Source of the DNA: Acaryochloris marina MBIC11017
GTDB taxonomy: Bacteria > Cyanobacteriota > Cyanobacteriia > Thermosynechococcales > Thermosynechococcaceae
Length of the DNA: 32,000 nucleotides
Direction of reading: 5' to 3'
Assembly (NCBI RefSeq): GCF_000018105.1
Contig: NC_009927.1
Span: forward strand, 60,001 to 92,000
Below, in pieces: positions 3,763 to 27,187 of this stretch (positions are counted from its first letter, which is position 1; each line of letters opens with the position of its first letter). Both the position numbers and the translations under genes were made by a program. The notes under the pieces were generated by a model. It did no database searches. It saw only the letters and a program-made list of their open reading frames with translations, and was not told the origin of the DNA.

Positions 3763-3810
3763 CGTTAGTTCTCAAGAATGCTCTGAAGTCAATTCTCTTA
3801 TCCCATGCAT

Positions 3811-4150: not shown

Positions 4151-4255
4151 AATCTATCAAGTAAATCTGAGGAAATTTGGGGGCAACCCCCTCTCGCATA
4201 CTCCCAAACATGTTTACCAGAGCGTTGTTTAGGACATTCTTATTAACTTAAGGTG
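4151..4255 (+). repeat. repeat family copy C1 (33-nt core plus about 70-nt extension shared with C2)
   Basis: Core is aatctatcaagtaaatctgaggaaatttggggg. The extension gcaaccccctctcgcatactccc...agcgttgtttagga...cttaagg aligns with 5086..5157. Confidence 0.7.
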
Positions 4256-9169: not shown

Positions 9170-9283
9170 GAAAACCCGGAATAATTTACAGGTGGGATTT
9201 TTCCAGACATCTATTCGACAAGTGTGTAGTAGATCGCAAGTCTCAAATATATGATTCCAATTCATCAAGGATTTTTGTAACTT

Positions 9284-9647
9284 ATGGCAACCAGCACCCC
9301 TCCACCTATCTATCCTGATGAAGCACTTGGGGCTAGCGGCCTTCTTGGCATCTGGCAGTTGCTCAAGTTTTCTCGAAAACCGATTGAATTTTCGGTCAAA
9401 TCTGCACAAGAATATGGAGACGCGGCAAGAATTAGCATTGGTTCGATTCACGTCTATATTTTTCATCATCCTGACCTGATTTCCGAAGTCCTCAGCAAAA
9501 AAAACGAACACTTTATTAAGGACATTAGCTATCGTTCTCTAGCAGGATTCCTTGGTAATGGACTTCTACTTATTGATGGAGAACATTGGCAGAAACATCG
9601 ACGCCTCATGCAACCTGCTTTCACTCAAGATAAGGTATCTACCTATA
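9284..9647 (+). pseudogene. cytochrome P450, N-terminal part (interrupted by an IS)
   Basis: The ORF reads ...HPDLISEVLSKKNEHFIKD...LIDGEHWQKHRRLMQPAFTQDKVSTY and then runs into the IS inverted repeat. Confidence 0.85.
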
Positions 9648-10581
9648 GAACTCATTTGAGATCTTTTGCCTAATACGCGAAACTGCTAGAAGCGTTCTAT
9701 TTCAATTGTTATGGCCTACTCAAGCAGTCTGACTGATGCCGAATGGGAAATCCTCAAACCACTGTTACCAGAATTTCTACCCCCCAAGAAAAAGACAAGG
9801 CCTCTGATCTGGAGTTACAGAGAGCTGATTGATGGGATGCTTTATCGACTCAAAAATGGGTGCAACTGGGAGGACCTGCCCAAAGACTTTCCCCCCTCCT
9901 CAACGGTCTTTTGGCACTACAACGTGTGGCGCAAAGCAGGCTCGATTGAGACATTGATGACGCTGCTGCATGGACAGGTTCGTGAGCAGGTAAAAAAAAG
10001 TCCAAATGGACAACGTTGATAATGGCAGACTCGCAAGCGGTGAAGAACACTTGCAATGCGAGGGTGGAGTCGAAAGGGTTCTGTTTCTACAAAGCCACCA
10101 ATGGAATCAAGCGCCATCTAGCTGTTGATACCCTTGGCTTTCCATTCTTTACCCTTTGCACCCCCGCAAATGTCTCAGACGATATGGGCTTACTGATGAT
10201 GTTGACCCTCAATATTGAGTACTTCAAAGCCAAGCCGGTCAATATCCCTAAAATCACTTTTTTGTTGGACAACGGCTATCACGTGGACACCTTGACTCAG
10301 AAGCTTGGGGCAATCTATCCAGCCATCATGAGAAAGATCAGATTTGAGCTATCGCCGAAACCCTCAAAAGCAGAAAAAGCGGCTCAAGGGAAAACGGGCT
10401 TTGTTCCGGTTGCAACCCGGTGGGTCATTGAGCGTTCCAACGCTTGGATGGAGCGCTGTAAGAGCCTGACTAAGAACTTTGAACGAACGCTTGTGAATGC
10501 AAAAGCGCAAATGGATTTGTGCTTCGTCAGGCTTATGCTGAAGAGACTTGCGGCTAATTCTTAAAGATCTCAAATGGGTTC
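9648..10581 (+). mobile_element. IS5-family insertion sequence (IS427/IS1031-like), 934 bp
   Basis: 19-bp terminal inverted repeats GAACTCATTTGAGATCTTT (9648-9666) and AAAGATCTCAAATGGGTTC (10563-10581), matching at 18/19. A TATA direct repeat flanks both ends (9644-9647 and 10582-10585). The element has a two-ORF transposase. Confidence 0.9.
9711..10564 (+). CDS. IS5-family transposase, two ORFs joined by a -1 frameshift in an A8 run
   Basis: OrfA (9711..10019) has the LTDAEWEILKPLLP HTH-type N-terminus. OrfB (10016..10564) carries the DDE-domain region (ADSQAVKN...KRHLAVDTLG...RWVIERSNAWM). The A8 tract at 9992-9999 lets the -1 frame read ..QVKKKSKWTTLIMADSQ... Confidence 0.85.
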
Positions 10582-10585
10582 TATA

Positions 10586-11577
10586 TTGCAACGGCTATAG
10601 AAGAGACTAACAAAATGCTCGGCACTTGGAAGACTGGAGAAATCCATGATATCCATCAAGATATGAGCCAGCTTACTGTGAAGGTGATTACCAAAGTACT
10701 CTTTGGCGTTGATATCACACAAATGGCCTTAGAGATTGGGGATGCTCTAGAATCAATCTTGCTTCAGTACTATCACAAGGCACAGACTAGCTTCTTGCTA
10801 CCATCTTGGGTGCCTACACCGGGCAATCTTAGAGCTAATCGGGCTATAGAATACCTTAATAAGCTGGTCATCGACATCATTGAACAGCGTCGAGAATCTC
10901 CACAAGATGATTTGTTATCTAGTCTGCTCTTAGCTCAGGATGAAGATGGCAGTCAGCTTTCTATGAAAGAGCTGCGTGATGAGGTGATGACACTCTTACT
11001 CGCAGGGCATGAAACCACTGCCACGGCACTGACTTGGACATTAATGTTGTTGGCTCAAAATCCAGAGGTTGCACAAAAGCTAGCCTCAGAAACTCAATCG
11101 GTCCTGGAGGGAAGGGCACCAGGCATCACAGACCTACCGCGCTTGCCATACACAGAGATGGTTCTCAAAGAGTCGATGCGTCTGTATCCACCAGCTTGGG
11201 CATTGAGTCGAGAAGTAGCCCAAGATTGTATGATTGGCCCTTATTTCCTGAAAAGAGGAACATCTGTTTTTTTTAGTCAATGGGTTGTTCATCGAGATAC
11301 CCGGTTTTTTGACAATCCAGAACAGTTTTTACCAGAGCGGTGGCAGGATAATCTAGAGCTAAATCTGCCACGCTGTGCATATTTCCCCTTTGGAGCAGGA
11401 CCCAGGGGGTGCATTGGCCAAGCTTTTTCCATAATGGAGGCGACGCTAATACTGGCGATGATTTTAAAGCAAAATTACTTCAAGCTTGTCCCGGACCAGG
11501 CTATTGAGCTGTTACCGTCAATAACATTGCGTCCAAAATATGGAATTAAGATGATTTTGGAGTCTTCCAACCTCTAA
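10586..11577 (+). pseudogene. cytochrome P450, C-terminal part
   Basis: Contains the I-helix LLLAGHETTA, EXXR (ESMR) and the heme-binding loop FPFGAGPRGCIGQAF. Joining 9647 to 10586 restores one 1356-nt frame (..QDKVSTYIATAIEETNKMLGTW..). Confidence 0.9.
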
Positions 11578-13307: not shown

Positions 13308-13484
13308 AATGAAAAACCTCATCCCTCTCATTATTTGTGAACCATCGGATTGATATTGCCATTATTGGGGCAGGTCCCCAGGCGCTCACCCTCTTTACTC
13401 AGCAATTGGAGGACACCATTGACTAACTCAACTGCAAGCGTTCAAACATCCCAATCCCTCGACATCAAGCTGCCCAAAAAAGGC

Positions 13485-14522
13485 ATGCCCGTTACGATCA
13501 TTACGGGGTTTCTAGGAAGTGGCAAAACCACACTCCTCAACCATATTCTCAATACCAGCCAAGACCTGAAGGTCGCCGTACTGGTCAATGAGTTTGGCGA
13601 TATTGATATTGACAGTCAGCTGTTGACCACCATTGATCAAGATATGGTCCAGCTAACCAATGGCTGCATCTGCTGCACGATCAATGATGACCTGGTGGAG
13701 GCGGTCTATTCCGTCCTAGAGCGAGAGGAAAAAATTGATCATATGGTCATCGAAACCACGGGGGTGGCAGATCCGCTACCGATTATTCTCACCTTCGTTG
13801 GTTCTCAACTGAGAGACTTAACGACTTTAGATTCCGTTATTACCTTGGTGGATTCAGAAACCTTTACCCCGGAATGTTTTCAGAGTGAGGCGGCCCTGAA
13901 TCAAATTACCTTTGGCGATATTGTCGTTCTCAACAAAACCGACCTAGCCGCTGATCAAAAGGTGGAAGAACTAGAGCAGTGGATTCGTGAGCAAAAATGG
14001 GGTGCGAGGCTGTTGCGATCTCAACAGGGCCAAGTCCCTCTACCCCTGATTCTGGATACTACCCTCTTTGATCCCAAAGCATATGAAGAGGAAGTCAAAG
14101 CCTTTGCGGAGCAGGGGACTCATCATGATGAACATGACCATCACCATCATGATGAACATGACCACCACCACGGCGAACATGACCATCATCACCATGGCGA
14201 TCACGATCATCACCATCATCATTCTGAGCACCTCACCATAGATGGATTTTCGTCAATGGCCTTTGAAAGCGATCGGCCCTTTGTTCTAGAAAAAATGCAG
14301 GCTTTCATTACCGATCAGCTACCAGAAGATGTCTTTCGAGCTAAGGGTTTTATGTGGTTTGAGAAAAATACATCCCGCTATATTTTTCAGCTCAGTGGCA
14401 AGCGCTATACGATGGACAGCGATCAGTGGCCTGATACCCCAAAAAATCAGCTGGTCTTTATTGGCCGCAATATTGACACAGCTCAGCTAAAACAACTGCT
14501 AACGGATTGCTTGGCCCCCTAA
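13485..14522 (+). CDS. COG0523 (CobW/ZigA/YeiR-type) metallochaperone GTPase with a His-rich insert
   Basis: Walker A GFLGSGKTT, metal motif GCICC, ETTGVADP and NKTDL. The His-rich segment is HHDEHDHHHHDEHDHHHGEHDHHHHGDHDHHHHHSEH. The start is uncertain: ATG 13485 (MPVTIITG), or TTG at 13419 or 13350. Confidence 0.9.
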   Translation: MPVTIITGFLGSGKTTLLNHILNTSQDLKVAVLVNEFGDIDIDSQLLTTIDQDMVQLTNGCICCTINDDLVEAVYSVLEREEKIDHMVIETTGVADPLPIILTFVGSQLRDLTTLDSVITLVDSETFTPECFQSEAALNQITFGDIVVLNKTDLAADQKVEELEQWIREQKWGARLLRSQQGQVPLPLILDTTLFDPKAYEEEVKAFAEQGTHHDEHDHHHHDEHDHHHGEHDHHHHGDHDHHHHHSEHLTIDGFSSMAFESDRPFVLEKMQAFITDQLPEDVFRAKGFMWFEKNTSRYIFQLSGKRYTMDSDQWPDTPKNQLVFIGRNIDTAQLKQLLTDCLAP

Positions 14523-15492: not shown

Positions 15493-17346
15493 TCAGGCAG
15501 CAAAGGTAAAGTCATCGGCATTGAGAGACGTTGTGCCCATCAGTCGAGCAATAGTTGTTCCACCGATCCCAATTTCGGTATCGTCTCCAGTGACTGTTAG
15601 GGCAAGACCGTCAAATTTTAGATCTCCTTGCCCAGAGATACCAATTATGTCAAGGCCCTGCTCAAAGTCAACGATGGTGTTGGTGCCCTCCGGCAATTCA
15701 CCGTTAACAATCCAGAAGGCATCAGAGCCAGCACCTCCAGACAGCTTGTTGTCTCCGCCAATTTCTGTGAAGAAGCTATCGTCTCCGTCTCCACCAAGAG
15801 CGCGGCCATTGCTTCCCAGGAAGAACTGATCATGTCCTGCCCCACCGGAGAGTCTGTATCTTGAAGCTTCAGTTGCCTCAAATATGTCGTCTCCAGCACC
15901 ACCAAAGGCTCTATCGCGGTCTGCCACAAACGTAATGTCATCACCACTGCCGAGGCTGATGCGATTATCGCCAGCTGTGCTTCCAGCGATCGCTGTATCA
16001 ACGTCGTCATTTCCTGCCCCAGCAAAAACCATGTCACTAACACCATCAAAGCCAGGTGTAATAGATGCAAACAGATCATCGGCTTCGCTACTGCCTGCCA
16101 CAATATTGGAGTCTGTAGGAATTAGTTCCGTATCCGGTAGCGGGACTGTTTCATTTTGGGGAGAAATCAAAGCATAAGTCCCTGCAATATCGCTTGGAGC
16201 TTGGATGAAGGTCAGATCGGGATCTTCAAGTTGGGCAATGACATCGCCGGATAGTGTTGAGATTTGTAAGAGTGTGAAGGTTTCTCCGCCAAATTCCACT
16301 TCAATATTCTCGAATTGGTAATTTTCAATTGACTTTGCCATGATGAGTTGATCTTCTTTCGGATCAAAATCGCCTATTAAGGCATAATCTTGATCACCTT
16401 GCCCGACATAAAAATCAGTTCCATCATTTCCTAGCAAAATGCGGTTAACACCAAAGGCACCATGGAAGTGGTCATAGTCACCACTTCCAGTTGTTGCAGT
16501 GGTGATCACTTGGGTGGAAGGATCATAGGAAGTGATCGGCATTCCTGCGATGACCGCATTTCCCAAGGCATAGAAGAAAGAGTCACGACCCACTACACCA
16601 TTGAAAAACGTGAGTCGCTCTTCGTTAATTCCTGCCGCGAGAAAATGATCCCAGCCAGAATTATAGTCACCTGCATCCAGCAAAGCTTCTACATCAGGAT
16701 TGGCTGCCAGATATGCTGTTTCATTGAAATAGGGTTTACTACGGCTCGCATAGAAAGAATTTTCAGGTGCAAACAGTAGAATTCCGTTACTGGTAAATAA
16801 GCCATCTGGAATGAGCTGGGGAACATCTTCGATAATGCCTATCAGATCTCCATTTCTAGAGATATGGACACTGTTGTCGATGGTCTCAAAATCGTAGTCT
16901 TCAGGATTGCCAGCCAGATAAATAGCATCCTCACTGAAGGGGTCAAAAAAGCGAATTAAGGCGTAGTCGCGATCGCCTTCTCCCAAATAAAAATCTTGCG
17001 GGTTCTCTTCTGCATTATCCCCCAGGTAAAAAATGTTGCGTCCCGGTGAACCTAGTAGCGTGTCAAACTCCCCCACACCAAATGACTCAACTTGAGCATT
17101 GACCAATCTTCTTCCTGATTTAATGGATTGTACAGGCACCCCAAATATCGAGGATGTTTGTCCAGAGCTATGGATAATGTCGTCACCTGTCGTGCCGTTG
17201 AAAATTACACCATTACGCTGTTGAAATTGTCCAATCTGCACGTATTCTTCTAGTCCAGAAGCATATAGACCTTGGGCTACTGCTTCAGCAACTTGTGGGT
17301 TTTGATCTAGATAGATTGCCTCATTTAAAAAAGAATTGCTTGTCAT
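15493..17346 (-). CDS. RTX-type (hemolysin-type Ca-binding repeat) secreted protein with a duplicated N-terminal domain
   Basis: C-terminal GGxGxD nonapeptides (GAGNDDV, GSGDDIT, GGAGDDIF, GGAGHDQF, GGDGDDSF, GGAGSDAF). No signal peptide. There are two ~190-aa internal repeats (FLNEAIYLDQNPQVAEAV... and YFNETAYLAANPDVEALL...; ..GEGDRDYALIRFFDP.. and ..GQGDQDYALIGDFDP..). Confidence 0.9.
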   Translation of the reverse strand: MTSNSFLNEAIYLDQNPQVAEAVAQGLYASGLEEYVQIGQFQQRNGVIFNGTTGDDIIHSSGQTSSIFGVPVQSIKSGRRLVNAQVESFGVGEFDTLLGSPGRNIFYLGDNAEENPQDFYLGEGDRDYALIRFFDPFSEDAIYLAGNPEDYDFETIDNSVHISRNGDLIGIIEDVPQLIPDGLFTSNGILLFAPENSFYASRSKPYFNETAYLAANPDVEALLDAGDYNSGWDHFLAAGINEERLTFFNGVVGRDSFFYALGNAVIAGMPITSYDPSTQVITTATTGSGDYDHFHGAFGVNRILLGNDGTDFYVGQGDQDYALIGDFDPKEDQLIMAKSIENYQFENIEVEFGGETFTLLQISTLSGDVIAQLEDPDLTFIQAPSDIAGTYALISPQNETVPLPDTELIPTDSNIVAGSSEADDLFASITPGFDGVSDMVFAGAGNDDVDTAIAGSTAGDNRISLGSGDDITFVADRDRAFGGAGDDIFEATEASRYRLSGGAGHDQFFLGSNGRALGGDGDDSFFTEIGGDNKLSGGAGSDAFWIVNGELPEGTNTIVDFEQGLDIIGISGQGDLKFDGLALTVTGDDTEIGIGGTTIARLMGTTSLNADDFTFAA

Positions 17347-19538: not shown

Positions 19539-19943
19539 TCATGGTTTCTTTGTGGCAGCAATGGCCAGTTTCGCACCTTCAATTTCGCGAATGCGATCCA
19601 TCACCGTCACGACGCGGCCATGACTCACTTGGTCATCTGCATGAATCACCACCACTACCTTGTCAGCTGAATCAGTTAGCTCCTTCACTTCTGCCTCAAG
19701 GACGTTGAGCTGAATGGGTTCTCGATTGAGAGCTAAATCCCCCTGCGCATCAATCGTGACCGTCACCTTGGTCGATAGCTGTGGTTTTACTGTCTTTGCC
19801 TGGGGCAAATTAACAGGTAAGGCATCACTGCGGTTGAGGAATAACGTGGCAATGATAAAAAAGGACAGAATTGCAAAAATAACATCAATCATCGGCACAA
19901 TATTGATTTGAGCCGATGGACTGGGATCATCGGGTAAGCGCAT
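19539..19943 (-). CDS. exbD: ExbD/TolR family biopolymer transport protein
   Basis: 134 aa; the INIVPMIDVIFAILSFFII signature transmembrane segment is present. It overlaps the upstream exbB by 17 nt. Confidence 0.9.
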   Translation of the reverse strand: MRLPDDPSPSAQINIVPMIDVIFAILSFFIIATLFLNRSDALPVNLPQAKTVKPQLSTKVTVTIDAQGDLALNREPIQLNVLEAEVKELTDSADKVVVVIHADDQVSHGRVVTVMDRIREIEGAKLAIAATKKP

Positions 19944-20580
19944 GATTCACCCTGCCTCTTTCATAGCGGTGACGATAAAGCAACTCCAACTGCCCCCCAT
20001 GCTCTTGAATAAAGGCCAACTGGCGCTGATATAAACTGCGAAACATATTGGCAAAAATCAGGGTTGAAATGGCGACAATCAATCCCGCAGCCGTTGAAAT
20101 TAGGGCGGTACTTATTCCCCCGGTGACTTCTGCTGATTCACTACCGCCGATATTGCCTACATCTAGGGAGGAGAAGGAGTTGATCAGGCCCAATACCGTC
20201 CCTAATAGGCCGAGTAAAGGGGAAATACTAATGATGGTGTCAAACACCGTCGTAAATCGTTTCAATGTCGGCAATTCAGCTTGAGCTTCACTTTCTAATG
20301 CCAATCGGAATTCTTCCGGTGTCGGGTCTTCTAAGGACAAGGCAGCTAAGAATATCCGGGCAATCGGAAATCTTGCTTGCTCTTGGAGATACCTCAAGGC
20401 GTCATAGACATTATCTTGGCGATAAAGCTGCAGTGCCTGTTTGACGATCCGCAACTGGTTGCGATTCACCCTCGTCCAAAAGATGAGGCGTTCAAAAATC
20501 AGTGCGATCGCAATTAACGAAAAAACCATGAGCGGGAGCATCACCACTCCTCCCGCAATAATCACTTGGCCAAACTGCAT
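19927..20580 (-). CDS. exbB: MotA/TolQ/ExbB proton-channel protein
   Basis: 217 aa with three transmembrane segments. The conserved ..ISPLLGLLGTVLGLI..F........GGISTALISTAAGLIVA.. region is present. Confidence 0.9.
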   Translation of the reverse strand: MQFGQVIIAGGVVMLPLMVFSLIAIALIFERLIFWTRVNRNQLRIVKQALQLYRQDNVYDALRYLQEQARFPIARIFLAALSLEDPTPEEFRLALESEAQAELPTLKRFTTVFDTIISISPLLGLLGTVLGLINSFSSLDVGNIGGSESAEVTGGISTALISTAAGLIVAISTLIFANMFRSLYQRQLAFIQEHGGQLELLYRHRYERGRVNHALTR

Positions 20581-20795
20581 TTTGTTGATACCCCTCCATT
20601 CATTACAGCGACAAGAGAAGACCGATTACTCTGACCGTAACCACAGCAAACGGCATTAGTTCTGAGAGCATAAAACTGCGAATAAATACACCAAGAGGCA
20701 CTGATACAGCAACCACCCTTGCTGCACGCTGAGCCTATAAAGCGATGTCGAGATTTCGGCATAATCGGCCATATATGAGACATTAAATCCATAAC

Positions 20796-21878
20796 TTAAT
20801 ACAAGGATTGCTGCCGCTTTAACATCAGCCAAATCAGGATGGGGGCACCCAGCACAGCCATCACTGCATTGAGGGGTAGAACGGACTGACTCCCTGGAAG
20901 TTGAGAGATCGCATCGGCAATCAAAGCTAAGATGGCACCGAGCAGAGCCACAGCTGGGACTAGGATGCGATGATCGACGGTTCGAAATAAACTCCGGCAC
21001 AGATGCGGGACAGCGACTCCCACAAATGCAATAGGTCCACAAAAGGCCGTAACCGATCCTGATAATAAGGAAGAACTGAAGATCAAAAGGCATCGGGTTC
21101 GATTGACAGACAGCCCTATACTTTGAGCTTGCGCTTCCCCCAGTAACAGCAAATTTAAAGCTTTATGCAACAGTTGTGATCCCCCAAGTCCTAAGGCAAT
21201 GACAGGCAACAACAAGGGCATCTGTTGCCAAGTCACATTCGAAAAACTACCAAAGGTCCAGTTGAGGTATGCCTGGGTCTGAGTAAGCAAACTGAAATGC
21301 AAAAGGATAGTCACTAGAGCAGTGGTCATATACCCAAACATGAGGCCAAAAATAAGCAGTGCTAAAGCACTACGCACCCGTTGAGCCACTAGTAGCACCA
21401 CCCCCATGGACATCCCTGCGCCCAAACTGGCCGCCCCAATAATGCTGATCTGAACAAAACCATTGCCAGCGTTAGCTGTCCCTCTAGTTAAAACCACGAG
21501 AGCGGCCCCCAAACTAGCGCCAGCATTAATGCCTAGCAAGGAAGGCCCTGCAAGTGGATTGCGGAATAATGCCTGTAGCTGTAATCCGCTCGTTGCTAAG
21601 GCAGAACCCGCTGCGATCGCAGTTATCGTTCTAGGCAATCGAAACTGGAGAATAATCTGTTGCCAGGTCGGATTCGTGGCCTGACCTCCGAACAACACAG
21701 TGATCACGTCTGATAGGGGAATCGAGACAGATCCAAAAGCCAGGCTGACTAGCACCCCCATTAACAAGACACTACTTAGAACCCCTAAACCAGCGTAACG
21801 GCTGATTTGCGGCCTTCCATGTAGTGGGTCGGGAAGATGTCTATCGTTCCCATCAGTCATCGCTGAGGACATATCCAT
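20796..21878 (-). CDS. FecCD/BtuC-family ABC transporter permease
   Basis: 360 aa. RLPRTITAIAAGSALATSGLQLQALFRNPLAGPSLLGINAGASLGAAL is the family signature. About 9-10 hydrophobic segments. Confidence 0.93.
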   Translation of the reverse strand: MDMSSAMTDGNDRHLPDPLHGRPQISRYAGLGVLSSVLLMGVLVSLAFGSVSIPLSDVITVLFGGQATNPTWQQIILQFRLPRTITAIAAGSALATSGLQLQALFRNPLAGPSLLGINAGASLGAALVVLTRGTANAGNGFVQISIIGAASLGAGMSMGVVLLVAQRVRSALALLIFGLMFGYMTTALVTILLHFSLLTQTQAYLNWTFGSFSNVTWQQMPLLLPVIALGLGGSQLLHKALNLLLLGEAQAQSIGLSVNRTRCLLIFSSSLLSGSVTAFCGPIAFVGVAVPHLCRSLFRTVDHRILVPAVALLGAILALIADAISQLPGSQSVLPLNAVMAVLGAPILIWLMLKRQQSLY

Positions 21879-21881
21879 TTC

Positions 21882-22661
21882 TCACTGCTGTACATATTCA
21901 ACCCGTTGTACCCAAGTGCGATGAGTGCCATTAGGATCAAGAGATAACAGCCGAAACCCAGGCAGATGAGTATGATCAGTTGGTACAGGTGGATTCACCT
22001 GTAAACAAGTGGAAGGACAACCGTAGAAGTAAATCGGTGAGGGACGTTGGCTGAAAACATGCTGATACTGGAAGTCCAAGTGGATATGTCCAAACAGCAC
22101 CACTTTCACTTGTGGGAAGCTCTCCAACAGGGTGAGCAATGCATCAGCATTTTGCACCTGCATTTGATCCAGCCAGTCGATACCGATTGCCACAGGATGA
22201 TGGTGTAGGGCAATCACCGTAGGTTTATGAGGATGTTGAGTCAAGACTGATTGCAACTGTTGCAAGGCGCTGACTGATAAATACCCTTCACCAAACTGAG
22301 CAGAAGGCAACACTGAGTTGAGTGAAATAAGCAGCCAGCTCCCCAGATGAATTGCCTGTGGCCCATAGAGTTGAGGAGACTGCAGTTCCCGATGCATGGC
22401 CTCAACTTGATCATGGTTACCAGGCAGCCAGTAAGCTGGCATCTTCAAGGGTAAGATTGCTCTCATTAAATGCTGATAAGCAACGACACTCCCTTGATCG
22501 GCTAAATCCCCCGTTAAGAGAATTCCATCCAGTTGATCTCGATTCACTTGCTGCAGAACAGCCTGTAAGGATTGCCAAGGATTAGTCCCTCGTAGCAGTG
22601 CCGTTGTATCTGCCAACAGATGGGTATCACTGATTTGTGCAAGCGTAATGGGGGCCGTCAT
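21882..22661 (-). CDS. metallophosphoesterase (CpdA/Icc-like class III phosphodiesterase fold)
   Basis: Motifs DTHL, GDLADQG, GNHD, HHHP and GHIH occur in the canonical order. Its ATG overlaps the stop of the binding-protein gene (ATGA), and its stop is 3 nt from the permease ATG. Confidence 0.88.
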   Translation of the reverse strand: MTAPITLAQISDTHLLADTTALLRGTNPWQSLQAVLQQVNRDQLDGILLTGDLADQGSVVAYQHLMRAILPLKMPAYWLPGNHDQVEAMHRELQSPQLYGPQAIHLGSWLLISLNSVLPSAQFGEGYLSVSALQQLQSVLTQHPHKPTVIALHHHPVAIGIDWLDQMQVQNADALLTLLESFPQVKVVLFGHIHLDFQYQHVFSQRPSPIYFYGCPSTCLQVNPPVPTDHTHLPGFRLLSLDPNGTHRTWVQRVEYVQQ

Positions 22662-23920
22662 GAGTCTAATTTTTGGTAATAAATCAGTTGATGATTAGGC
22701 AATAACTCTGGGTGGAAAATCTTGATCAAGTCTGCTAGTACCTTATGGGGGTTTACAACCCCGCTTTCCCAATAATCGTTGCCGCCAGCAGCATTGACCC
22801 GAGCCGTATTATTGAAGACGCGATCAGCTTGGACTGCAGACAGTTGACCGTAGCGAGCATCGGTTGAGATCGCATCTTGTCTCGATCTCCAATCTTGGCT
22901 GACATTAACCCAGAACTCAGCCTTCACTGCTCGATTAAACACTGCTTCAAAGTCCAGGGGTAGACTCCCTCTTGCATCTGACTCTGACCAGAGATAGTTG
23001 GCACCTGCATCCTGCAAGAGCTGGGACACATAACTTTTGCCTCCCGGCATATACCAGGTGCCATTGTGACTAAACCCCGTAAACACCGTGGGACGTTGGG
23101 CCACAGATTGAGCCAACTGCACCATCGATTGATACTCTTGGGCTATATCGGAAAAGACCTGTTCTGCCTGCGCTTCTTGATTAAAAAATAGGGCCGTATA
23201 CTTTAACCACTCTGCTTGTCCCAGGGGGGATTCCTCCATATATTCCCCCACCAGGGCAACGGGTAGACCTGCCTTGACCAGACGAGGATGACTATCTGTG
23301 TCTGGGTTACCCGTTCCATAGGTCATCACCAAATCCGGTGCTGTCACCAGCAGCCGCTCCACATCTAAGGTATTGCCAGAATTAAACTCAACCAGTTCAC
23401 CCCGATCAATTTTGGCCCGCACCTTTAGACTATTCACTTGCTTAAACTGGCTGACACCGACAAGGGTATCTAGCTGACCTAACAGTTCCAAGTGAGGTAA
23501 ATAGGTCGTGGATAGCACGACTAGACTGCTAATCGGTACTTCCACCATCGGCAGATCTTCAAAGCCTGGGGGTTTGGGTGTTCCACACTGCACTAGCAGA
23601 TACTGAAAGGTTTGGTTTGCCCCTTTCCAGGGATTCTGAACGGTAACTATTTTGTAGTGACGGTGATACTCTACCGAGAAACCCACGGCATAGTCAGACT
23701 GGACCTTATTGGGGAAATAATCTTGAGTAGGATCGTACGCAACAGGACATTGATCGGCAGAAGTTGGTGAAGAATCAGATTTCAGGGCTGATGGTGATTG
23801 GGTTGGCTGGCAACCAACTCCCCCTAGGAATCCAACGACAGCCAATCCCGCCGTTACTTTCAGCAGTCGAATCCAGCCAGAAGTAGCGTAGTCACTGATG
23901 GATGCTTTGGGTTCCTTCAT
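22658..23920 (-). CDS. ABC transporter periplasmic substrate-binding protein (siderophore/heme/B12 class)
   Basis: The region ..VVLSTTYLPHLELLGQLDTLVGVS......VERLLVTAPDLVMTYG... is typical of FhuD/BtuF-class binding proteins. The start is set at MKEPKAS (23920), giving a signal peptide ending GGVGC and avoiding a 92-nt overlap with the upstream gene. Confidence 0.88.
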   Translation of the reverse strand: MKEPKASISDYATSGWIRLLKVTAGLAVVGFLGGVGCQPTQSPSALKSDSSPTSADQCPVAYDPTQDYFPNKVQSDYAVGFSVEYHRHYKIVTVQNPWKGANQTFQYLLVQCGTPKPPGFEDLPMVEVPISSLVVLSTTYLPHLELLGQLDTLVGVSQFKQVNSLKVRAKIDRGELVEFNSGNTLDVERLLVTAPDLVMTYGTGNPDTDSHPRLVKAGLPVALVGEYMEESPLGQAEWLKYTALFFNQEAQAEQVFSDIAQEYQSMVQLAQSVAQRPTVFTGFSHNGTWYMPGGKSYVSQLLQDAGANYLWSESDARGSLPLDFEAVFNRAVKAEFWVNVSQDWRSRQDAISTDARYGQLSAVQADRVFNNTARVNAAGGNDYWESGVVNPHKVLADLIKIFHPELLPNHQLIYYQKLDS

Positions 23921-23936
23921 CCTGTCGTCGCTAGGG

Positions 23937-24824
23937 CTATACAGAGGCTTGAGTTTTGATCGGGGGATAGACATGGGCTTGAATAGGGCGGCCTTGAGCG
24001 ACATGCTCCTGAACAATTCGGTGGGCAATCTCAGGAGTCACGCGGGTATACCAAGTGCGATCCCCGGAATAAAACACCACTGGCCCAGCAGCACAAACTT
24101 CTAAACAGCCAGAGGTTCTCACGGCAACCTCCAAACCTGACTGCTGTACAGCCGTTTGTAATGCCTCAATAATGGGCTGCACATCCTGAGAGGGATAGCA
24201 GCGGCTGGATCGACAGACTGACAGATAGGGTCGCTTGAGTGGATTCTCAGTATAGGGAATGGGACGAGTTCCCAATACATAAATATCGCGCAACGTTTCA
24301 TAGAGGCTCAGTTTATCCAGTTGGGGTGTCCCTTCCGGTAGCAAGTTCTCGTCGGCATCCACAAAGGGATTGGGTAAAAAGAGATTCATCATCTTTTCTC
24401 CAGCTCCATTCCAGAACTGAATCCCCCAACTTCGTGCTTGGCCGCGATCATTGAAGCGGCGGTAAAACGAGGCTCGCTGTACCTGTCGTTTTCGTCTCAA
24501 CGCTGGAGGGGTTTTGCCGAGGGGACCACCCTGATGTTCTTCTAGGCATAGATGCAAATGCCATCCTGCCGTCACAACCGTCAGATAGCCATCGTACAAA
24601 ATACAAGTTTTAGGGGCTTGGGTAAATTCCAGCTCAAGAACGCTCCCCTCTACTACGTGACCAATCTGGGTTTGTTGCCAGCACTCTTGAAACAGGGTGT
24701 AAAGCAGAGGCCCCAGGACCTCAATGGTGCAAGGAAAATCTTCATACTCGATCTGTCCTCCAGTCGCTAAGGGGTCAACGGTACGGTAGTTTAAAGGGAC
24801 GACTTGACGTGAAAATTCAGACAT
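23937..24824 (-). CDS. two-domain protein: ChuX/HutX-like N-terminal domain fused to a thioredoxin-like [2Fe-2S] ferredoxin domain
   Basis: C-terminal ~90 aa: YLSVCRSSRC...GCLEVCAAGPVVFYSGDRTWYTRVTPEIAHRIVQEHV, the CxxxxC...CxxxC pattern of thioredoxin-like 2Fe-2S ferredoxins. N-terminal ~190 aa: SVLELEFTQAPK..DGYLTVVTAGWHLHLCLEE...SWGIQFWNGAGEKMMNLFLP resembles E. coli ChuX as I recall it (VILEFSGELP..GYFNL..GHIKAE...SILFFNKEGSAMLKIFLG). The N-terminal assignment needs a profile search. Confidence 0.85.
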   Translation of the reverse strand: MSEFSRQVVPLNYRTVDPLATGGQIEYEDFPCTIEVLGPLLYTLFQECWQQTQIGHVVEGSVLELEFTQAPKTCILYDGYLTVVTAGWHLHLCLEEHQGGPLGKTPPALRRKRQVQRASFYRRFNDRGQARSWGIQFWNGAGEKMMNLFLPNPFVDADENLLPEGTPQLDKLSLYETLRDIYVLGTRPIPYTENPLKRPYLSVCRSSRCYPSQDVQPIIEALQTAVQQSGLEVAVRTSGCLEVCAAGPVVFYSGDRTWYTRVTPEIAHRIVQEHVAQGRPIQAHVYPPIKTQASV

Positions 24825-24848
24825 CTTAGTTAAGTCCTACAATAAGTC

Positions 24849-26915
24849 CTAAAAAGTGGCACTCACACCCAGGCGAAAACTCCGACCCACTGCCGGAAAA
24901 CCTGGAAATTGTTCATAATGCTGATCTAACAAATTGTCTAAACTGCCCGTGAAGGCAAAGCTATCCCCAATCGGGAAACGAAGCTTGAGATCGAGCGTGG
25001 TATAGCCCGGCAAGGATTCTGTATTCGTGTTGTTGACAAAGTAGGAACTGAGATAGCGGACAATGGCGGCGATATAGACACCTTTTGCATTCTCATAGGC
25101 CAAACCAACATTGAGGCTATCCGCGCCGCGAAAGCTGAGTTCATTACCTGTAATCGTAGGGTCGCCATCCTCAATAATTTCAGGCTCATTCAAGGTGTAG
25201 TTGGCAAAGGCATACAGGTTTTTGAGCAGTCGCACATTCAAATCCGCCTCTAAACCCAGCGTCCGCACCTTGCCGATATTTTCATAGGTACTAGGGGCAC
25301 CAAACTGAAAGTTAATCAAGTTAGAGATGGTATTGGCAAAGAAGGTGAGGCGTAACAAGCCATTCTCCCCCAGGGATTGGTCAATGCCAATATCAAAACT
25401 ATCGCCCCGTTCTGGCTCTAAATCAGGGTTACCCACCACATTAAAGGCAGCTAAGCCTTCTAGGTTGACGATTTGAGGTGCTCGAAAACTCCTGGCATAA
25501 TTCGCCCGTAAAACCGTGGAATCTCCTATGGCAAGACGAGCCCCCACACTAGGAGAGGTAAAGGAACCATTAGCTAAACTATTGAAATCTTGGCGCAAAC
25601 CAAAATTGAGATTGAATTTTGGCGTAATGTTGACGTCATAACGGGCAAACAAGGCCCCTTGATCAATGCCGCCATCATAGTTAACATCTGTGGTTCCCAG
25701 ACCATAGCTAAAAGTGGTGTTCCGAGACTGGGTATTGCGGTAGTCAAATCCATAGGTCAGGGTTTGGTTTTTGGCGACTTTCCAGTTGTGCTGGACTTGT
25801 GCCCCAATAGAGCGGCGATCAACATCATCTCGTGTGCCAAAGGCTGCAGGGTCTGGATTATCAAAGTTGGAGTCCAGCAGATCCGCAAAAATCCGGCTGG
25901 TGAGTTGGGAGTTGCCCGCCTGGTCCAGTTGGGCTTGCCAAGTCAGATCTAGGAAGAGTTCTTCCGTGGTTTGCCGGGCTAAAGGGGTCAGGCTATTAAA
26001 TTGGCCAATACTGTCGGGAATTGGCACACCCCCAGCCGAGCCAAAATCTTTGTTCAGATAGAGGGCGCTGAAGGTTACCTGGTTGCGATCGCTGAGTTTT
26101 CCTTCCAGCTTCAGATTCAGATTGTTGTACAACACGTCGGCGTTGTTCCGATCTGCTTGCAATCCAATCCGGTTAATCTCAAACGGAAAGTCATTCGTCG
26201 CCTGGGTGCGGGTATAGCCAACGCTCCACCCCAAATCCCCACTGCGCCCCCGAGCCTGCACGGCTTGCTCATTGAGCCCAAAACTTCCAGCCGCAGCTCT
26301 GAGGGTCACCTCCGGTTTTTCGTCAGCAGGAGCACGAGTAATGATATTAATCACGCCCCCTAAGGCATCGGAGCCATAGAGGGTCGATCCTCCACCTGGC
26401 AAGAGTTCAATCCGCTCTATATTGTCCGTCGTGAAATTCGATAGATCAAATCCACCCATAAACCCCACGTCATTAATGGGGCGACCATCTAGCAAAATCA
26501 AAACTTGAGCTGTGTTACTCCCCCGAATAAACTGGCTACTCAGAGCTCCTAGTTGTCCCCCAGCTGTGCCGTCCCTCAGAATTCCTGGGAGATATTTCAA
26601 CGCTTCTTGGACCGTTCTCGCGCCTTGGGCCTCAATTTGCTCGCGATTAATCACATACACCGGGCGAGACGAATCACGCACCGTGCCTTCTCGCCGAAAG
26701 GGGGCATAAACGGGCTGATCTAAGATTTCTCCCGTGACTGTAATTTCTACTTCTTCGTCCTCCACTATCGAAGAAGGTAGGGCCTCCTCATCGGTAGGGG
26801 GATTCGCTTGTGCCAGGCTAGCTCTTGAAGTGTAGCTAAACCAGGCAGTTAAACTGAGTCCAAAAACGAATATGAGCTTCCCAATGACAGGAAACCCAAC
26901 TTTTACACCTTTCAT
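24849..26915 (-). CDS. TonB-dependent outer-membrane receptor (BtuB-like by context)
   Basis: 688 aa with a signal peptide and a TonB-box-like EITVTG. Plug-domain motifs are present (IRGSNTAQVLILLDGRPIND, LYGSDALGGVINIITR), and the beta-barrel ends in the terminal F (..LGVSATF). A cobalamin riboswitch precedes it. Confidence 0.95.
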   Translation of the reverse strand: MKGVKVGFPVIGKLIFVFGLSLTAWFSYTSRASLAQANPPTDEEALPSSIVEDEEVEITVTGEILDQPVYAPFRREGTVRDSSRPVYVINREQIEAQGARTVQEALKYLPGILRDGTAGGQLGALSSQFIRGSNTAQVLILLDGRPINDVGFMGGFDLSNFTTDNIERIELLPGGGSTLYGSDALGGVINIITRAPADEKPEVTLRAAAGSFGLNEQAVQARGRSGDLGWSVGYTRTQATNDFPFEINRIGLQADRNNADVLYNNLNLKLEGKLSDRNQVTFSALYLNKDFGSAGGVPIPDSIGQFNSLTPLARQTTEELFLDLTWQAQLDQAGNSQLTSRIFADLLDSNFDNPDPAAFGTRDDVDRRSIGAQVQHNWKVAKNQTLTYGFDYRNTQSRNTTFSYGLGTTDVNYDGGIDQGALFARYDVNITPKFNLNFGLRQDFNSLANGSFTSPSVGARLAIGDSTVLRANYARSFRAPQIVNLEGLAAFNVVGNPDLEPERGDSFDIGIDQSLGENGLLRLTFFANTISNLINFQFGAPSTYENIGKVRTLGLEADLNVRLLKNLYAFANYTLNEPEIIEDGDPTITGNELSFRGADSLNVGLAYENAKGVYIAAIVRYLSSYFVNNTNTESLPGYTTLDLKLRFPIGDSFAFTGSLDNLLDQHYEQFPGFPAVGRSFRLGVSATF

Positions 26916-26944
26916 CCATACCTCGCAGATGTTGTAAGTGAGTA

Positions 26945-27065
26945 ATAACTCGGCGGGCGTTCTGACTCTGAGGACAAAGCCTCATCACAGTTGCGGGACA
27001 GCGCCGGATTTTCACCGGACTTTCCCCGTTTCCTCTAACGGCTGTTCTCCGTTAGAACCGAATCT
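26945..27065 (-). promoter_or_regulatory. cobalamin (B12) riboswitch
   Basis: The minus strand reads GGAAACGGGGAAAGTCCGGTGAAAATCCGGCGCTGTCCCGCAACTGTGATGAGG...CAGAGTCAGAACGCCCGCCGAG. This carries the conserved GGGAA..GGTGAAAATCC..GCTGTCCCGCAACTGT core and a B12-box-like AGTCAGAAcGCCcGCC. It ends about 30 nt before the receptor ATG. Confidence 0.85.
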
Positions 27066-27187
27066 ATAAAATTGTTTCTGCACCTTATCACAGGAATGAG
27101 ATGCATTAGAGAGAAGCGGAAGGCACATAGGAATTTGCCAATATCTTGGAATAGATTGAACCGCTTGAATAAGTTTTTATACTGAGA

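Follow-up and report, generated by a model that had tools for sequence, protein, structure and literature searches.

The putative operon that we describe here, from the cyanobacterium Acaryochloris marina MBIC11017, contains a gene for a 295-residue fusion of a DUF7676 domain, which has the predicted fold of the HemS/ChuX/HutX haem-binding proteins, with a domain that by sequence and model is a thioredoxin-like [2Fe-2S] ferredoxin. We propose, with a probability of about one half, that this protein accepts corrinoids in the cytoplasm and carries its own one-electron donor, with which it reduces Co(III) and removes the upper ligand. Such a corrinoid chaperone/reductase had been suggested in a preliminary description of this DNA; the idea is now backed by genomic context in more than 150 loci and by split DUF7676/ferredoxin pairs, and by no biochemistry. 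Our literature searches found no published study of the DUF7676 family, and those on ChuX with cobalamin and riboswitch, on the Anabaena gene alr4030, and on decyanation with btuB found no characterisation.

A cobalamin-riboswitch operon and its cyanobacterial relatives

The window, i.e. the whole 32,000-nucleotide stretch that was analysed, carries the operon on its minus strand in the order btuB, fusion gene, btuF, cpdA-like gene, btuC, exbBD:

26935..27077 (-), cobalamin riboswitch aptamer RF00174 (Rfam cmscan, 58.3 bits, E 3.4e-12, full-length model)
24849..26915 (-), BtuB-like TonB-dependent outer-membrane receptor, 688 aa (Pfam Plug and TonB_dep_Rec_b-barrel)
23937..24824 (-), DUF7676 and predicted thioredoxin-like [2Fe-2S] ferredoxin fusion protein (ORF, 295 aa)
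22658..23920 (-), BtuF-like periplasmic binding lipoprotein (Pfam Peripla_BP_2, 1e-28)
21882..22661 (-), CpdA-like calcineurin-type metallophosphoesterase, within the operon (Pfam Metallophos, 1e-18)
20796..21878 (-), BtuC-like FecCD permease (Pfam FecCD, 1.6e-76)
19927-20580 (-), ExbB (Pfam MotA_ExbB, 1.9e-34)
19539-19943 (-), ExbD (Pfam ExbD, 7e-29)

The aptamer ends 19 nt before the btuB-like start on the same strand, which bears out the B12 riboswitch that had been claimed upstream of the fusion gene, and this context is conserved in relatives. A tandem riboswitch as in locus L001 was looked for and rejected: it is absent from the window, and in the L001 MAG the riboswitch is duplicated together with the 5' end of btuB. 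The best NCBIfam model for the receptor is TonB-B12 (TIGR01779, ~210 bits, under its cut-off), and the permease is best matched by BtuC (PRK03784, 200 bits). The CpdA-like protein scores 182 bits on PRK11148, under the cut-off of 225. ExbB and ExbD are the energising partners of the BtuB-like receptor. The fusion-protein ORF starts with an ATG 24 nt past the btuB-like stop codon, and the likely start of the BtuF-like protein is the ATG at 23920, 16 nt past the fusion-gene stop (translation MKEPK...GGVGC). We presume the fusion protein to be cytoplasmic because no long hydrophobic stretch is apparent at its N-terminus, a judgement made by eye and without a predictor.

Homologues of the fusion protein in the protein database number 264, and the best 120 of these are 59-97% identical to it; the N-terminus aligns across 44 homologues. 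Immediately before the fusion-gene homologue there is a BtuB relative (46-96% identity) in ~53 of 80 cyanobacterial loci, and a cpdA-like gene lies downstream in 17 of the 80. An upstream cobalamin riboswitch on the same strand was found in 24 of 26 loci with the BtuB context and in 30 of the 48 cyanobacterial loci scanned overall, directly preceding the homologue in L016, while 12 of the 48 showed none within 4.5 kb. Contexts without BtuB likewise consist of B12-regulon genes, namely metE, nrdAB and cbiMQO, with cbiM/Q/O adjoining the homologue in L016, L028 and L035. Related gene sets have been studied elsewhere; for example, Syn7002 has a btuB-cpdA-btuF-btuC operon (PMC12967095), and the Anabaena operon alr4027-btuB2-alr4030-btuFCD responds to cobalt starvation with induction and to cobalamin with repression, and CN-Cbl is taken up through it (PMC10878165). 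In Anabaena sp. PCC 7120, alr4030 occupies the corresponding slot, flanked by btuB2 and btuF, in an operon that is under riboswitch control and takes up cobalamin; the difference is that alr4030 is uncharacterised, being described merely as ferredoxin-like, with no mention found of its N-terminal domain (PMC10878165). Nostocales loci L063-L068 have the gene order of alr4030, with homologues of 61-63% identity. We presume that alr4030 is the orthologue of the fusion gene, an assignment resting on position and not on the PCC 7120 sequence.

A thioredoxin-like ferredoxin domain at the C-terminus

Two independent AlphaFold models were used (pLDDT 90.4 and 89.8), and the whole-protein AF2 model has a pLDDT of 90.4 and a pTM of 0.88. 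Within the C-terminal domain we place the following features:

23964..24236 (-), putative thioredoxin-like [2Fe-2S] ferredoxin domain, residues 197-287 (approximate; PDB phmmer and Foldseek)
24198..24215 (-), predicted first cluster-ligand pair, C204-RSSR-C209 (coordinates checked)
24093..24107 (-), predicted second cluster-ligand pair, C240-LEV-C244 (coordinates checked)

The cysteine pattern is C204-x4-C209 ... C240-x3-C244, followed by GPVVFYSGDRTWYTRVTPE, and all four cysteines are invariant in 44 of 44 homologous sequences. Phmmer against the PDB returned HydB N-terminal domains (7t2r_B, 8.6e-9) and Aquifex Fd4 (1f37, 1.1e-8), aligning C204-RSSR-C209 with the VCRGTGC motif of HydB and C240-LEV-C244 with GCmnaC of Fd4. 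The domain is also matched by NCBIfam fdxn_Clost (1.7e-8), its score on Pfam PF01257 is 20.3 bits, under the cut-off of 24.8, and Foldseek gives TM 0.72-0.76 to 1m2a/1m2b/1m2d, the value for Aquifex Fd4 being 0.74. The CxxxxC...CxxxC spacing is that of thioredoxin-like [2Fe-2S] ferredoxins (Aquifex Fd4 1f37/1m2a, Azotobacter FeSI 5abr and the N-terminal domain of HydB/NuoE), whose GP..V.Y.....WY..VTPE segment is present as well. By sequence and model, then, the domain is a thioredoxin-like [2Fe-2S] ferredoxin, as had been proposed, and of the NuoE/HydB type; that it incorporates a cluster is inferred. Those ferredoxins differ from the present domain in its setting, as here it neither stands alone nor belongs to a hydrogenase or to complex I, being fused to a domain with a tetrapyrrole-binding fold.

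A HemS/ChuX-like fold at the N-terminus

24279..24767 (-), DUF7676 domain with a predicted HemS/ChuX/HutX-like fold, residues 20-182 (PF24724 and Foldseek)
24546..24563 (-), W88-H89-L-H91-L-C93 motif on a single beta-strand (coordinates checked)

The N-terminal domain had been called ChuX/HutX-like, and the claim holds for the fold and fails for the profile family. The Pfam match is to DUF7676 (PF24724) at 226.2 bits against a cut-off of 27 (E 2.1e-67, residues 20-182, profile positions 6-166 of 166), and the expected ChuX_HutX match was not obtained, neither the ChuX_HutX (PF06228) nor the HemS (PF05171) HMM matching the fusion protein at E <= 0.1. A search of PDB sequences with the DUF7676 profile found no ChuX/HemS chain, hhalign gave only a weak alignment of DUF7676 with 3fm2-like ChuX/HutX proteins (E 0.0039, probability 8.5%), and the HMM link to PF22684 (LFE_1968-like, 3na2) is weak for the fusion protein (E 0.039), with E 2.1e-5 for the Aliibacillus DUF7676 member L170. 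We therefore reject membership of the ChuX_HutX/HemS profile families and assign the domain to DUF7676, noting its ChuX-like fold. With the N-terminal domain alone as the Foldseek query against the PDB, the best 23 matches all belong to the HemS/ChuX superfamily at probability 1.00, and beyond them the probability is 0.2 or less. The matches at 1.00 include the ChuX structures 6u9j and 2ovi, HutX 5exv, 3na2, 2ph0, 2hqv and 3fm2, along with ChuS, HemS and PhuS; for single-domain superfamily members the TM (TMt) is 0.47-0.63. On this predicted structure the domain meets the definition of the HemS/ChuX-like structural superfamily by fold.

The W88-H89-L-H91-L-C93 motif is invariant in 44 cyanobacterial sequences. 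H91 is the sole nearly invariant histidine of the whole DUF7676 family, kept in at least 90% of 24 diverse members, and hhalign pairs its strand with FEFHLN of 3fm2-like ChuX/HutX proteins, in which a histidine stands on the equivalent strand. A single nearly invariant histidine fits an axial-ligand role, and H91 is thus a candidate axial ligand on alignment evidence; ligation of cobalt is inferred, with no binding data. Alternatively, such an H-x-H-x-C strand could hold a single metal ion as a mononuclear site.

Does a haem-binder fold mean a haem operon? One could suppose that haem, or some other iron tetrapyrrole, is what the operon takes up, that the protein acts as ChuX/HutX do and that the ferredoxin feeds a haem oxygenase, a supposition for which one can cite, besides the fold, the TonB-hemin score of the BtuB-like receptor (173 bits vs ~211 for TonB-B12). 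However, cobalamin riboswitches control DUF7676 operons in many phyla, the neighbours include CbiZ and PduO with no haem-degradation family among the recurrent neighbour clusters annotated, and cyanobacteria have separate, bona fide ChuX/HutX-family proteins (3fm2-like). Moreover, the Anabaena operon answers to cobalt and cobalamin and imports CN-Cbl (PMC10878165). We reject a haem-uptake operon on the grounds of riboswitch, neighbouring genes and literature, and regard haem trafficking as barely credible. By its genomic context the protein falls outside the functional class of ChuX/HutX, which is defined by haem binding and by location in a haem-uptake operon; the context here is that of a cobalamin riboswitch with btuB, btuF and btuC.

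DUF7676 without its ferredoxin

Isolated DUF7676 genes recur in B12-salvage operons on Proteobacteria-like metagenome contigs and in Firmicutes, and the riboswitch and uptake-operon context is thus observed across phyla. Among 80 metagenome loci with a stand-alone DUF7676 gene, a TBDR lies directly upstream in 36, and the recurrent neighbours are an ABC ATPase (11), a PduO-type adenosyltransferase (10), PBP (8), FecCD (8) and CbiZ (7). An upstream, same-strand cobalamin riboswitch (102-132 bits) is present in 12 of the 25 longest stand-alone loci, and L081 and L084 have one too. A recurrent small membrane protein was considered as BtuM and rejected, having no PDB, Pfam or NCBIfam match.

In some loci the ferredoxin is a separate gene. 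The Aliibacillus loci L170/L171 have the order riboswitch, PBP, FecCD, ABC, DUF7676 and a separate 126-aa ferredoxin that passes PF01257 at 25.3 bits; a ferredoxin-like ORF directly follows DUF7676 in L129; and an FhuF_C 2Fe-2S-like protein stands beside PduO and DUF7676 in L113, L115 and L116. Two further proteins, of 166 aa in L085 and, at its N-terminus, the 279-aa accessory protein of L168, resemble split ferredoxins, a suggestion only that rests on weak alignment and cysteine matching (E 0.01). Most stand-alone DUF7676 genes have no adjacent ferredoxin, so redox chemistry is perhaps not intrinsic to DUF7676. This absence lends something to the view that DUF7676 merely binds and escorts a corrinoid as a chaperone or buffer, with the Fe-S domain structural or acting as a redox/oxygen sensor that gates release, as does the fold match to ChuX/HutX, which bind haem and pass it on without a redox partner. 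We consider a purely passive role quite unlikely, however, as the ferredoxin recurs independently (fused in cyanobacteria, encoded by the next gene in Aliibacillus and in L129, and in the form of the FhuF_C-like neighbour), all four of its cysteines are invariant, and thioredoxin-like ferredoxins are, to our knowledge, electron carriers.

A subset of DUF7676 genes not foreseen in the preliminary description lies beside NicO, under an AdoCbl riboswitch (L085), or inside Co-type nitrile hydratase clusters (L168/L169, VCTLCSCY), and one protein, P0161, is a fusion of DUF7676 with a nitrile-hydratase accessory domain (TIGR03889, 44.7 bits). Because of these genes we cannot exclude that DUF7676 and the ferredoxin handle cobalt in place of the intact cofactor, feeding pseudocobalamin synthesis or Co-enzymes. 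The protein could use H89/H91/C93 to act as a metallochaperone or redox chaperone for Co2+, or it could release cobalt reductively or oxidatively from imported corrinoids, by analogy with haem degradation by ChuS/HemS relatives of the same fold; the cbiM/Q/O neighbours in cyanobacteria and the cobalt-starvation response of the Anabaena operon (PMC10878165) point the same way. The commonest neighbours, though, are corrinoid-specific importers and ring-preserving salvage enzymes (BtuB-like TBDR, BtuFCD, CbiZ and PduO), and a single nearly invariant histidine outside cyanobacteria is thin for a metal-ion site. We also know of no corrin-degrading or cobalt-dechelating enzyme, and overall we deem a role centred on cobalt unlikely. 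In its most specific version, DUF7676 and the ferredoxin would together process the corrin enzymatically, taking the cobalt out of imported corrinoids with electrons from the Fe-S domain, a counterpart for cobalt of haem breakdown by ChuS/HemS/haem oxygenase. This would explain at once the presence of DUF7676 in B12-uptake operons, beside NicO/CbiMQO and inside Co-nitrile-hydratase clusters, and, if true, B12 analogues would supply the cobalt both for making pseudocobalamin de novo and for Co-enzymes, Co-type nitrile hydratase among them; we nevertheless find cobalt extraction improbable.

Proposed role and mechanism

Our preferred reading, a corrinoid acceptor with its own electron donor, follows from several lines of evidence: the N-terminal domain is matched only by haem binders of the HemS/ChuX superfamily and is joined to a four-cysteine ferredoxin domain; the gene follows btuB and precedes btuF in an operon headed by a cobalamin riboswitch, a BtuB/riboswitch context that is conserved in cyanobacteria; stand-alone DUF7676 occurs in TBDR/BtuFCD, CbiZ, PduO and riboswitch contexts; and the ferredoxin partner recurs as a separate gene. 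The Anabaena experiments on cobalt, cobalamin and CN-Cbl uptake add to these (PMC10878165). In the mechanism that we envisage, the DUF7676 domain would receive the corrinoid delivered by BtuB, BtuF and BtuC, its cobalt probably ligated via His91, and the thioredoxin-like [2Fe-2S] domain would pass one electron from the ferredoxin/FNR pool to the bound corrinoid. Co(III) would thereby be reduced to Co(II), with release of the upper ligand (CN-, OH- or possibly alkyl), and the reduced corrinoid would then move on to an adenosyltransferase, to CbiZ-type remodelling or to B12 enzymes. This scheme starts from what the data show, namely how the domains are arranged, their modelled folds, the conserved ligand residues and the setting among riboswitches and uptake genes across phyla; that the protein binds a corrinoid and carries an Fe-S cluster, which way electrons flow and what chemistry results are all inferred, without a measurement for any DUF7676 member.

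Comparison with known systems

The closest structural comparison is with ChuX/HutX (PF06228) and HemS/ChuS/PhuS, which have the predicted fold in common with DUF7676 (TM 0.47-0.63 to 6u9j, 2ovi, 5exv, 2ph0, 2hqv, 3fm2, 1u9t, 2j0r and 4mf9) and also the genomic logic, that of a cytoplasmic tetrapyrrole-binding protein inside a TonB-receptor/PBP/FecCD uptake operon. DUF7676 nevertheless shows only 11-18% identity to them and is a separate Pfam family, its operon is under a cobalamin riboswitch, unlike their iron/haem system, and none of the matched structures (130-350 aa) has a fused Fe-S domain. Functionally, the fusion protein would be a bacterial counterpart of CblC/MMACHC, made of unrelated parts. 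The job that it may share with CblC/MMACHC, a eukaryotic decyanase/dealkylase, and with BtuM, a bacterial transporter with decyanase activity, is the first processing of cobalamin, i.e. reductive removal of the upper ligand and transfer to an adenosyltransferase, and here this function is inferred; the PduO-type ATR that recurs beside DUF7676 recalls the adenosyltransferase hand-over of CblC-like processing. CblC uses flavin/GSH, and BtuM is a membrane protein that uses a Cys thiolate, whereas the reductant of the fusion protein would be an Fe-S cluster. The Pfam, NCBIfam, PDB-sequence and listed Foldseek matches include no protein named CblC/MMACHC or BtuM.

The concept of an Fe-S protein that gives electrons to a cobalt corrinoid is common to PduS, RACE/RACo, RamA and the CbiW ferredoxin of cob operons, none of which is among the Pfam, NCBIfam or listed Foldseek matches. 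Their folds and architectures differ from those of the fusion protein, PduS having FMN and two [4Fe-4S] clusters and RACo a plant-type 2Fe-2S domain with an ASKHA ATPase, and we know of no HemS/ChuX-like substrate domain in any of the four.

Significance

In eukaryotes, CblC and CblD handle cobalamin after import. Little is known of how bacteria handle cobalamin on its way from the inner-membrane transporter to the adenosyltransferase or B12 enzymes, and BtuM is the sole bacterial decyanase of which we are aware. The DUF7676-ferredoxin family is a concrete and testable candidate for the missing step, the intracellular receipt and reduction of imported B12, a status that it owes to its high conservation (59-97% over the best 120 homologues), its riboswitch control, its place in an operon that has been shown in Anabaena to import cobalamin, and the recurrence of the isolated domain in B12-salvage operons. 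If our proposal is true, this would be the first case known to us in which the HemS/ChuX haem-trafficking fold has been recruited for a cobalt corrinoid, and likewise the first of a thioredoxin-like ferredoxin coupled to a module that binds tetrapyrroles. The family would be relevant to the exchange of B12 between cyanobacteria or algae and heterotrophs, and to the engineering of B12-auxotrophic production strains such as Synechococcus PCC 7002 and PCC 11901.

The gene and its operon

The DUF7676-Fd gene lies in a minus-strand operon for B12 uptake.

Features of the operon (positions within the window)
26935-27077, minus strand: cobalamin riboswitch (RF00174, 58.3 bits)
24849-26915, minus strand: BtuB-like receptor
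23937-24824, minus strand: DUF7676-Fd gene (ORF, 295 aa, ATG start)
22658-23920, minus strand: BtuF-like binding protein
21882-22661, minus strand: CpdA-like metallophosphoesterase
20796-21878, minus strand: BtuC-like permease
19927-20580, minus strand: ExbB
19539-19943, minus strand: ExbD

The gene starts 24 nt past the stop of the TonB-dependent receptor (TBDR) gene, and the probable ATG (23920) of the BtuF-like lipoprotein gene lies 16 nt past its end. We consider the start codon sound because its opening sequence (MSEFSRQV...) lines up with the starts of 44 homologous proteins; by eye only, without a signal-peptide predictor, a long N-terminal hydrophobic stretch is absent. No btuD-type ABC ATPase gene occurs in the operon (19539-27077, minus strand), though btuB, btuF, btuC and exbBD are present, and Pfam revealed no ABC ATPase among the window ORFs of at least 120 aa that were examined.

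The operon also places a calcineurin-type, CpdA-like metallophosphoesterase between btuF and btuC, and it seems worth testing whether this enzyme acts on the nucleotide-loop phosphodiester of corrinoids (lower-ligand remodelling) and not on cAMP. Elsewhere in the window are a CobW/COG0523-type GTPase (13350-14522, plus strand) 5 kb from the operon end, at 10016-11577 (plus strand) a truncated cytochrome P450 (profile positions 139-446) adjoining a DDE transposase fragment, and a 617-aa ORF (15493-17346, minus strand) without a Pfam match.

Domain architecture

Residues 20-182 match DUF7676 (PF24724, 226 bits), and the protein is a member of that family. The preliminary description had read the N-terminus as ChuX/HutX-like and expected profile searches to return ChuX_HutX or HemS; Pfam gave neither, so membership in ChuX_HutX was rejected, and DUF7676 is a separate family. 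Pfam finds only a faint match to PF22684 (LFE_1968-like, E 0.039), and a DUF7676 profile did not find ChuX or HemS chains among PDB sequences.

The proposed fold, however, held up when AlphaFold models were compared with ChuX structures. The full-length model (pLDDT 90.4, pTM 0.88) matches ChuX (6u9j, 2ovi), HutX (5exv), 3na2, 2ph0, 2hqv and 3fm2 in the PDB with probability 1.00, and likewise ChuS, HemS and PhuS. Residues 1-195 were also modelled independently, from another alignment (distant stand-alone homologues; pLDDT 89.8); for this model the top 23 PDB matches all belong to the HemS/ChuX/HutX superfamily, with target-normalised TM of 0.47-0.63 for single-domain members at 11-18% identity, and beyond these 23 the probability falls to 0.2 or less. 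Thus, as far as predicted models can tell, structure comparison assigns the domain unambiguously to this superfamily. Sequence links are weak: a DUF7676 protein of Aliibacillus scores 25.3 bits against PF22684, which co-occurs with PF05171 and PF06228 on cyanobacterial 3fm2-like proteins, and hhalign of DUF7676 against the latter gives E 0.0039 at a probability of only 8.5%, pairing WHFHLC with FEFHLN and WGLR..NG with YAIRF.D. Because structure matches and weak sequence links agree, the domain has a ChuX/HutX-like fold and probably shares its ancestry with those proteins.

Which residues might hold a ligand? Cyanobacterial homologues share invariant H56, Y77-D-G-Y-L-T-V83, W88-H89-x-H91-L-C93, R113, Y121-R122, N125, W133-G134 and F137-W-N-G140. 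Nearly invariant across 24 diverse DUF7676 proteins are W49, G55, G60, E64, P71, G79, T82, H91, W133, N139, G140, P151, P153 and L172, so H91 is the sole family-wide histidine. Placed on a beta-strand (residues 89-93) in both AlphaFold models, it fits an axial ligand of a tetrapyrrole metal; alternatively, H-x-H-x-C could be a metal-ion site.

The C-terminal domain (residues ~197-287) belongs to the thioredoxin-like ferredoxins by ligands and fold. The anticipated CxxxxC...CxxxC pattern is present as C204-RSSR-C209 and C240-LEV-C244, then GPVVFYSGDRTWYTRVTPE, with all four cysteines invariant in 44/44 aligned cyanobacterial homologues. Searches of PDB sequences with phmmer find HydB-type subunits (7t2r_B, 8.6e-9) through their N-terminal thioredoxin-like domains, which share the VCxxxxC spacing, and Aquifex aeolicus Fd4 (1f37, 1.1e-8); NCBIfam fdxn_Clost matches at 1.7e-8, Pfam PF01257 scores 20.3 bits, below its 24.8-bit threshold, and the modelled domain superposes on 1m2a/1m2b/1m2d with TM 0.72-0.76. 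The [2Fe-2S] assignment is thereby borne out for sequence, ligands and fold; the cluster itself is predicted only. The rival view, that the protein is merely a passive chaperone and the cluster plays a structural or sensing part, is in our estimate decidedly unlikely; the ferredoxin recurs as a partner of DUF7676 outside the fusion (see below).

Cyanobacterial relatives

The protein database holds 264 homologues, of which the best 120 have 59-97% identity, are nearly all ~290-300 aa long and, where named at source, are mostly labelled "(2Fe-2S) ferredoxin domain-containing protein"; the closest (97%) is from an Acaryochloris MAG (locus L001; L numbers denote loci around relatives). Scanning a single genome for each species gave 144 relatives, and the best 80, examined as loci, are essentially all cyanobacterial, with one MAG labelled "Candidatus Gracilibacteria". 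A BtuB-like gene is directly upstream on the same strand in ~53/80 loci, and BtuF-, BtuC- and CpdA-like genes (the last in 17/80) are frequent downstream. The gene had been described as sitting behind a B12 riboswitch, and so it does: Rfam finds a same-strand upstream cobalamin riboswitch in 24/26 BtuB-context loci and in 30/48 cyanobacterial loci scanned, with one elsewhere within 4.5 kb in six more.

Loci without BtuB still have B12-regulon neighbours. For example, metE adjoins the homologue in L013 and L019, and L013 is a tight same-strand array of riboswitch, desaturase, methyltransferase, DUF7676-Fd gene and metE; class I nrdAB occurs in L016, cbiM with likely cbiQ/O in L016, L028 and L035, and DUF1636 and cobW-like genes in L018 and L020. 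A true haem protein, which the fold would allow, is very improbable.

Several loci have further features. L016 holds three cobalamin riboswitches inside 5.6 kb (3777-4182 and 9197-9341); two are divergent, one facing cbiM-type genes and one (4027-4182) immediately upstream of the DUF7676-Fd gene, and the third, just past the 5' end of nrdAB (a minus-strand pair), is nevertheless called on the plus strand. L012 has two same-strand riboswitches. L001 (1762-2050, compared with window 26794-27080) has a second copy of the riboswitch and btuB 5' end ~480 bp upstream, at 87% identity; the window has one riboswitch only. In Capilliphycus/Lyngbya (L028:1451-1858, L035:1149-1556), a genuine member of the ChuX/HutX family is encoded ~3 kb upstream of the DUF7676-Fd gene, a closeness that may be coincidental. 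This protein is orthologous to PDB 3fm2 (Ava_4353) and 83-100% conserved among the cyanobacterial homologues listed.

The cluster of Anabaena sp. PCC 7120 is ordered riboswitch, alr4027, btuB2, alr4030, btuF, btuC, btuD, is induced ~100-fold by cobalt starvation, is shut off by cobalamin and mediates cyanocobalamin uptake (PMC10878165). The Nostocales loci examined have this gene order, with homologues at 61-63% identity, alr4030 being the presumed orthologue. In Synechococcus PCC 7002, B12 limitation induces a btuB-cpdA-btuF-btuC operon (PMC12967095). The literature searched contains no mention of DUF7676, and combinations of ChuX, cobalamin, riboswitch, decyanation and btuB yielded no characterisation, in keeping with the earlier remark that no characterised protein of this architecture was known; the combination and its corrinoid association are undescribed in that literature.

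DUF7676 outside cyanobacteria

With residues 1-195 as query, an exhaustive HMMER search yielded only 177 clusters (50% identity, E <= 1e-3). Most near-full-length matches stand alone, measure 175-200 aa and share 29-42% identity. Locus L081 is ordered riboswitch (135 bits), TBDR, FecCD, ABC ATPase, DUF7676, and L084 riboswitch (123.5 bits), TBDR, DUF7676, 196-aa membrane protein, TonB. A metagenome scan found at least 497 relatives; 80 loci (L088-L167) were studied by clustering neighbours and annotating representatives.

Neighbours of DUF7676 in 80 metagenome loci
TBDR, immediately upstream: 36
Small membrane protein family (~189 aa), immediately downstream: 21
ABC ATPase: 11
PduO-type cobalamin adenosyltransferase: 10
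Peripla_BP_2: 8
FecCD: 8
CbiZ (adenosylcobinamide amidohydrolase): 7
TonB: 4
FhuF_C 2Fe-2S-like protein: 3

A cobalamin riboswitch scoring 102-132 bits lies upstream on the same strand in 12 of the 25 longest metagenome loci, in L144 immediately before DUF7676. As a genome carries only a few such riboswitches, we judge, without a computed expectation, that chance is very unlikely to produce this density.

In Aliibacillus thermotolerans (Firmicutes; L170/L171), a cobalamin riboswitch (120 bits) precedes Peripla_BP_2, FecCD, ABC ATPase, DUF7676 (177 aa) and, two bases past the DUF7676 gene end, the gene for a 126-aa protein that passes PF01257 (25.3 bits vs 24.8) and carries C-x4-C...C-x3-C plus VYPDGIWYKNLTPED. 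In L129, the ORF right after DUF7676 matches a ferredoxin-domain HMM (2.5e-11). Genes fused in one lineage and adjacent in another classically mark a functional pair. Two further proteins, each with four cysteines aligned but E only 0.01, are weaker candidates: a 166-aa protein in L085 (by hhalign) and the N-terminus of a 279-aa nitrile hydratase (NHase) accessory protein in L168. Separately, L113, L115 and L116 (e.g. L116:5949-6833) encode a 294-aa protein with a C-terminal FhuF_C 2Fe-2S motif. Its gene is flanked by those for CbiZ and the PduO-type adenosyltransferase, a short way upstream of DUF7676, and corrinoid salvage operons may use it as another kind of Fe-S reductase partner.

A family of ~185-205-aa membrane proteins with several hydrophobic segments directly adjoins DUF7676 in cyanobacteria and other phyla, typically in the order riboswitch, TBDR, DUF7676, membrane protein, without an ABC transporter. 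A ~195-aa member recurs beside the DUF7676-Fd gene in cyanobacterial loci without BtuB; the window has no copy.

Locations of the small membrane protein
Cyanobacteria: L015:3900-4487, L018:3906-4484, L028:5458-6039, L059:5632-6240
Elsewhere: L084:8666-9256 and 21 of the metagenome loci (e.g. L145:6392-6952)

Its invariants are P46, W71, N74-Q75, G78-F79, Y84-P85 and W93-G94, with "HAP" in cyanobacterial members vs "ACAVP" in non-cyanobacterial ones. Pfam, NCBIfam and PDB hold no match, and BtuM identity was rejected on the same searches. We regard it as a candidate new inner-membrane transporter of corrinoids (or cobalt).

Other contexts tie DUF7676 to cobalt generally, beyond corrinoids. L085:4869-8639 (on a 2.4-Mb contig) and L086 run from an AdoCbl riboswitch through two unknown genes to NicO, a Ni/Co transporter, and DUF7676; in L085 these are RF01482 (64 bits), a 293-aa unknown, the 166-aa Cys-rich protein, NicO and DUF7676. 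In the large cluster of protein P0130 (925 members, including Methylomirabilota), DUF7676 is directly upstream of NHase beta, alpha and accessory genes; metagenome loci L168:5014-9767 and L169 read FAD halogenase-like, 207-aa unknown, DUF7676, NHase beta, alpha (with VCTLCSCY, the Co-type signature) and the 279-aa accessory protein, in which the first ~120 residues show a pattern of cysteines like that of a ferredoxin. In protein P0161, DUF7676 is joined to an NHase accessory domain (TIGR03889, 44.7 bits, slightly below the cut-off of 46). These contexts would suit a role centred on cobalt, whether chaperoning Co2+ or releasing cobalt from corrinoids, a reading that is unlikely without being negligible; enzymatic cobalt salvage from corrinoids is improbable, though not ruled out. 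BtuB-like genes and CbiZ or PduO-type neighbours concern corrinoids.

Proposed function

In haem systems, ChuX/HutX/HemS-type proteins encoded in uptake operons receive the tetrapyrrole on the cytoplasmic side. Thioredoxin-like [2Fe-2S] domains are, as a family, low-potential one-electron carriers. Starting from the observed architecture, fold, conserved ligands, regulon membership and recurrent ferredoxin partner, the model that we find best supported, with a probability of about one half, is a corrinoid acceptor with a built-in one-electron reductant; ligand identity, electron transfer and chemistry are inferred. Following the haem analogy, corrinoid imported via BtuB/BtuF/BtuC would pass to the DUF7676 domain, with His91 as a likely cobalt ligand; the fused [2Fe-2S] domain would reduce Co(III) to Co(II), labilising the upper ligand (CN-, OH-). 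A PduO-type or CobA-type enzyme would then adenosylate the corrinoid, or it would undergo remodelling of the CbiZ type.

The fold and operon logic of DUF7676-Fd recall ChuX/HutX, and its chemistry may resemble that of CblC/BtuM, but it belongs to neither family; among the Pfam, NCBIfam and Foldseek matches listed, none points to CblC, BtuM, PduS or activators of the RACE type. A dedicated, tethered reductant is plausible because imported corrinoids are expected as Co(III) in an oxygenic phototroph, and this expectation may explain why the fusion is cyanobacterial. What we propose as new, and as undescribed in the literature searched, is a tetrapyrrole-trafficking fold that the B12 regulon has taken in together with a redox domain on the same chain.
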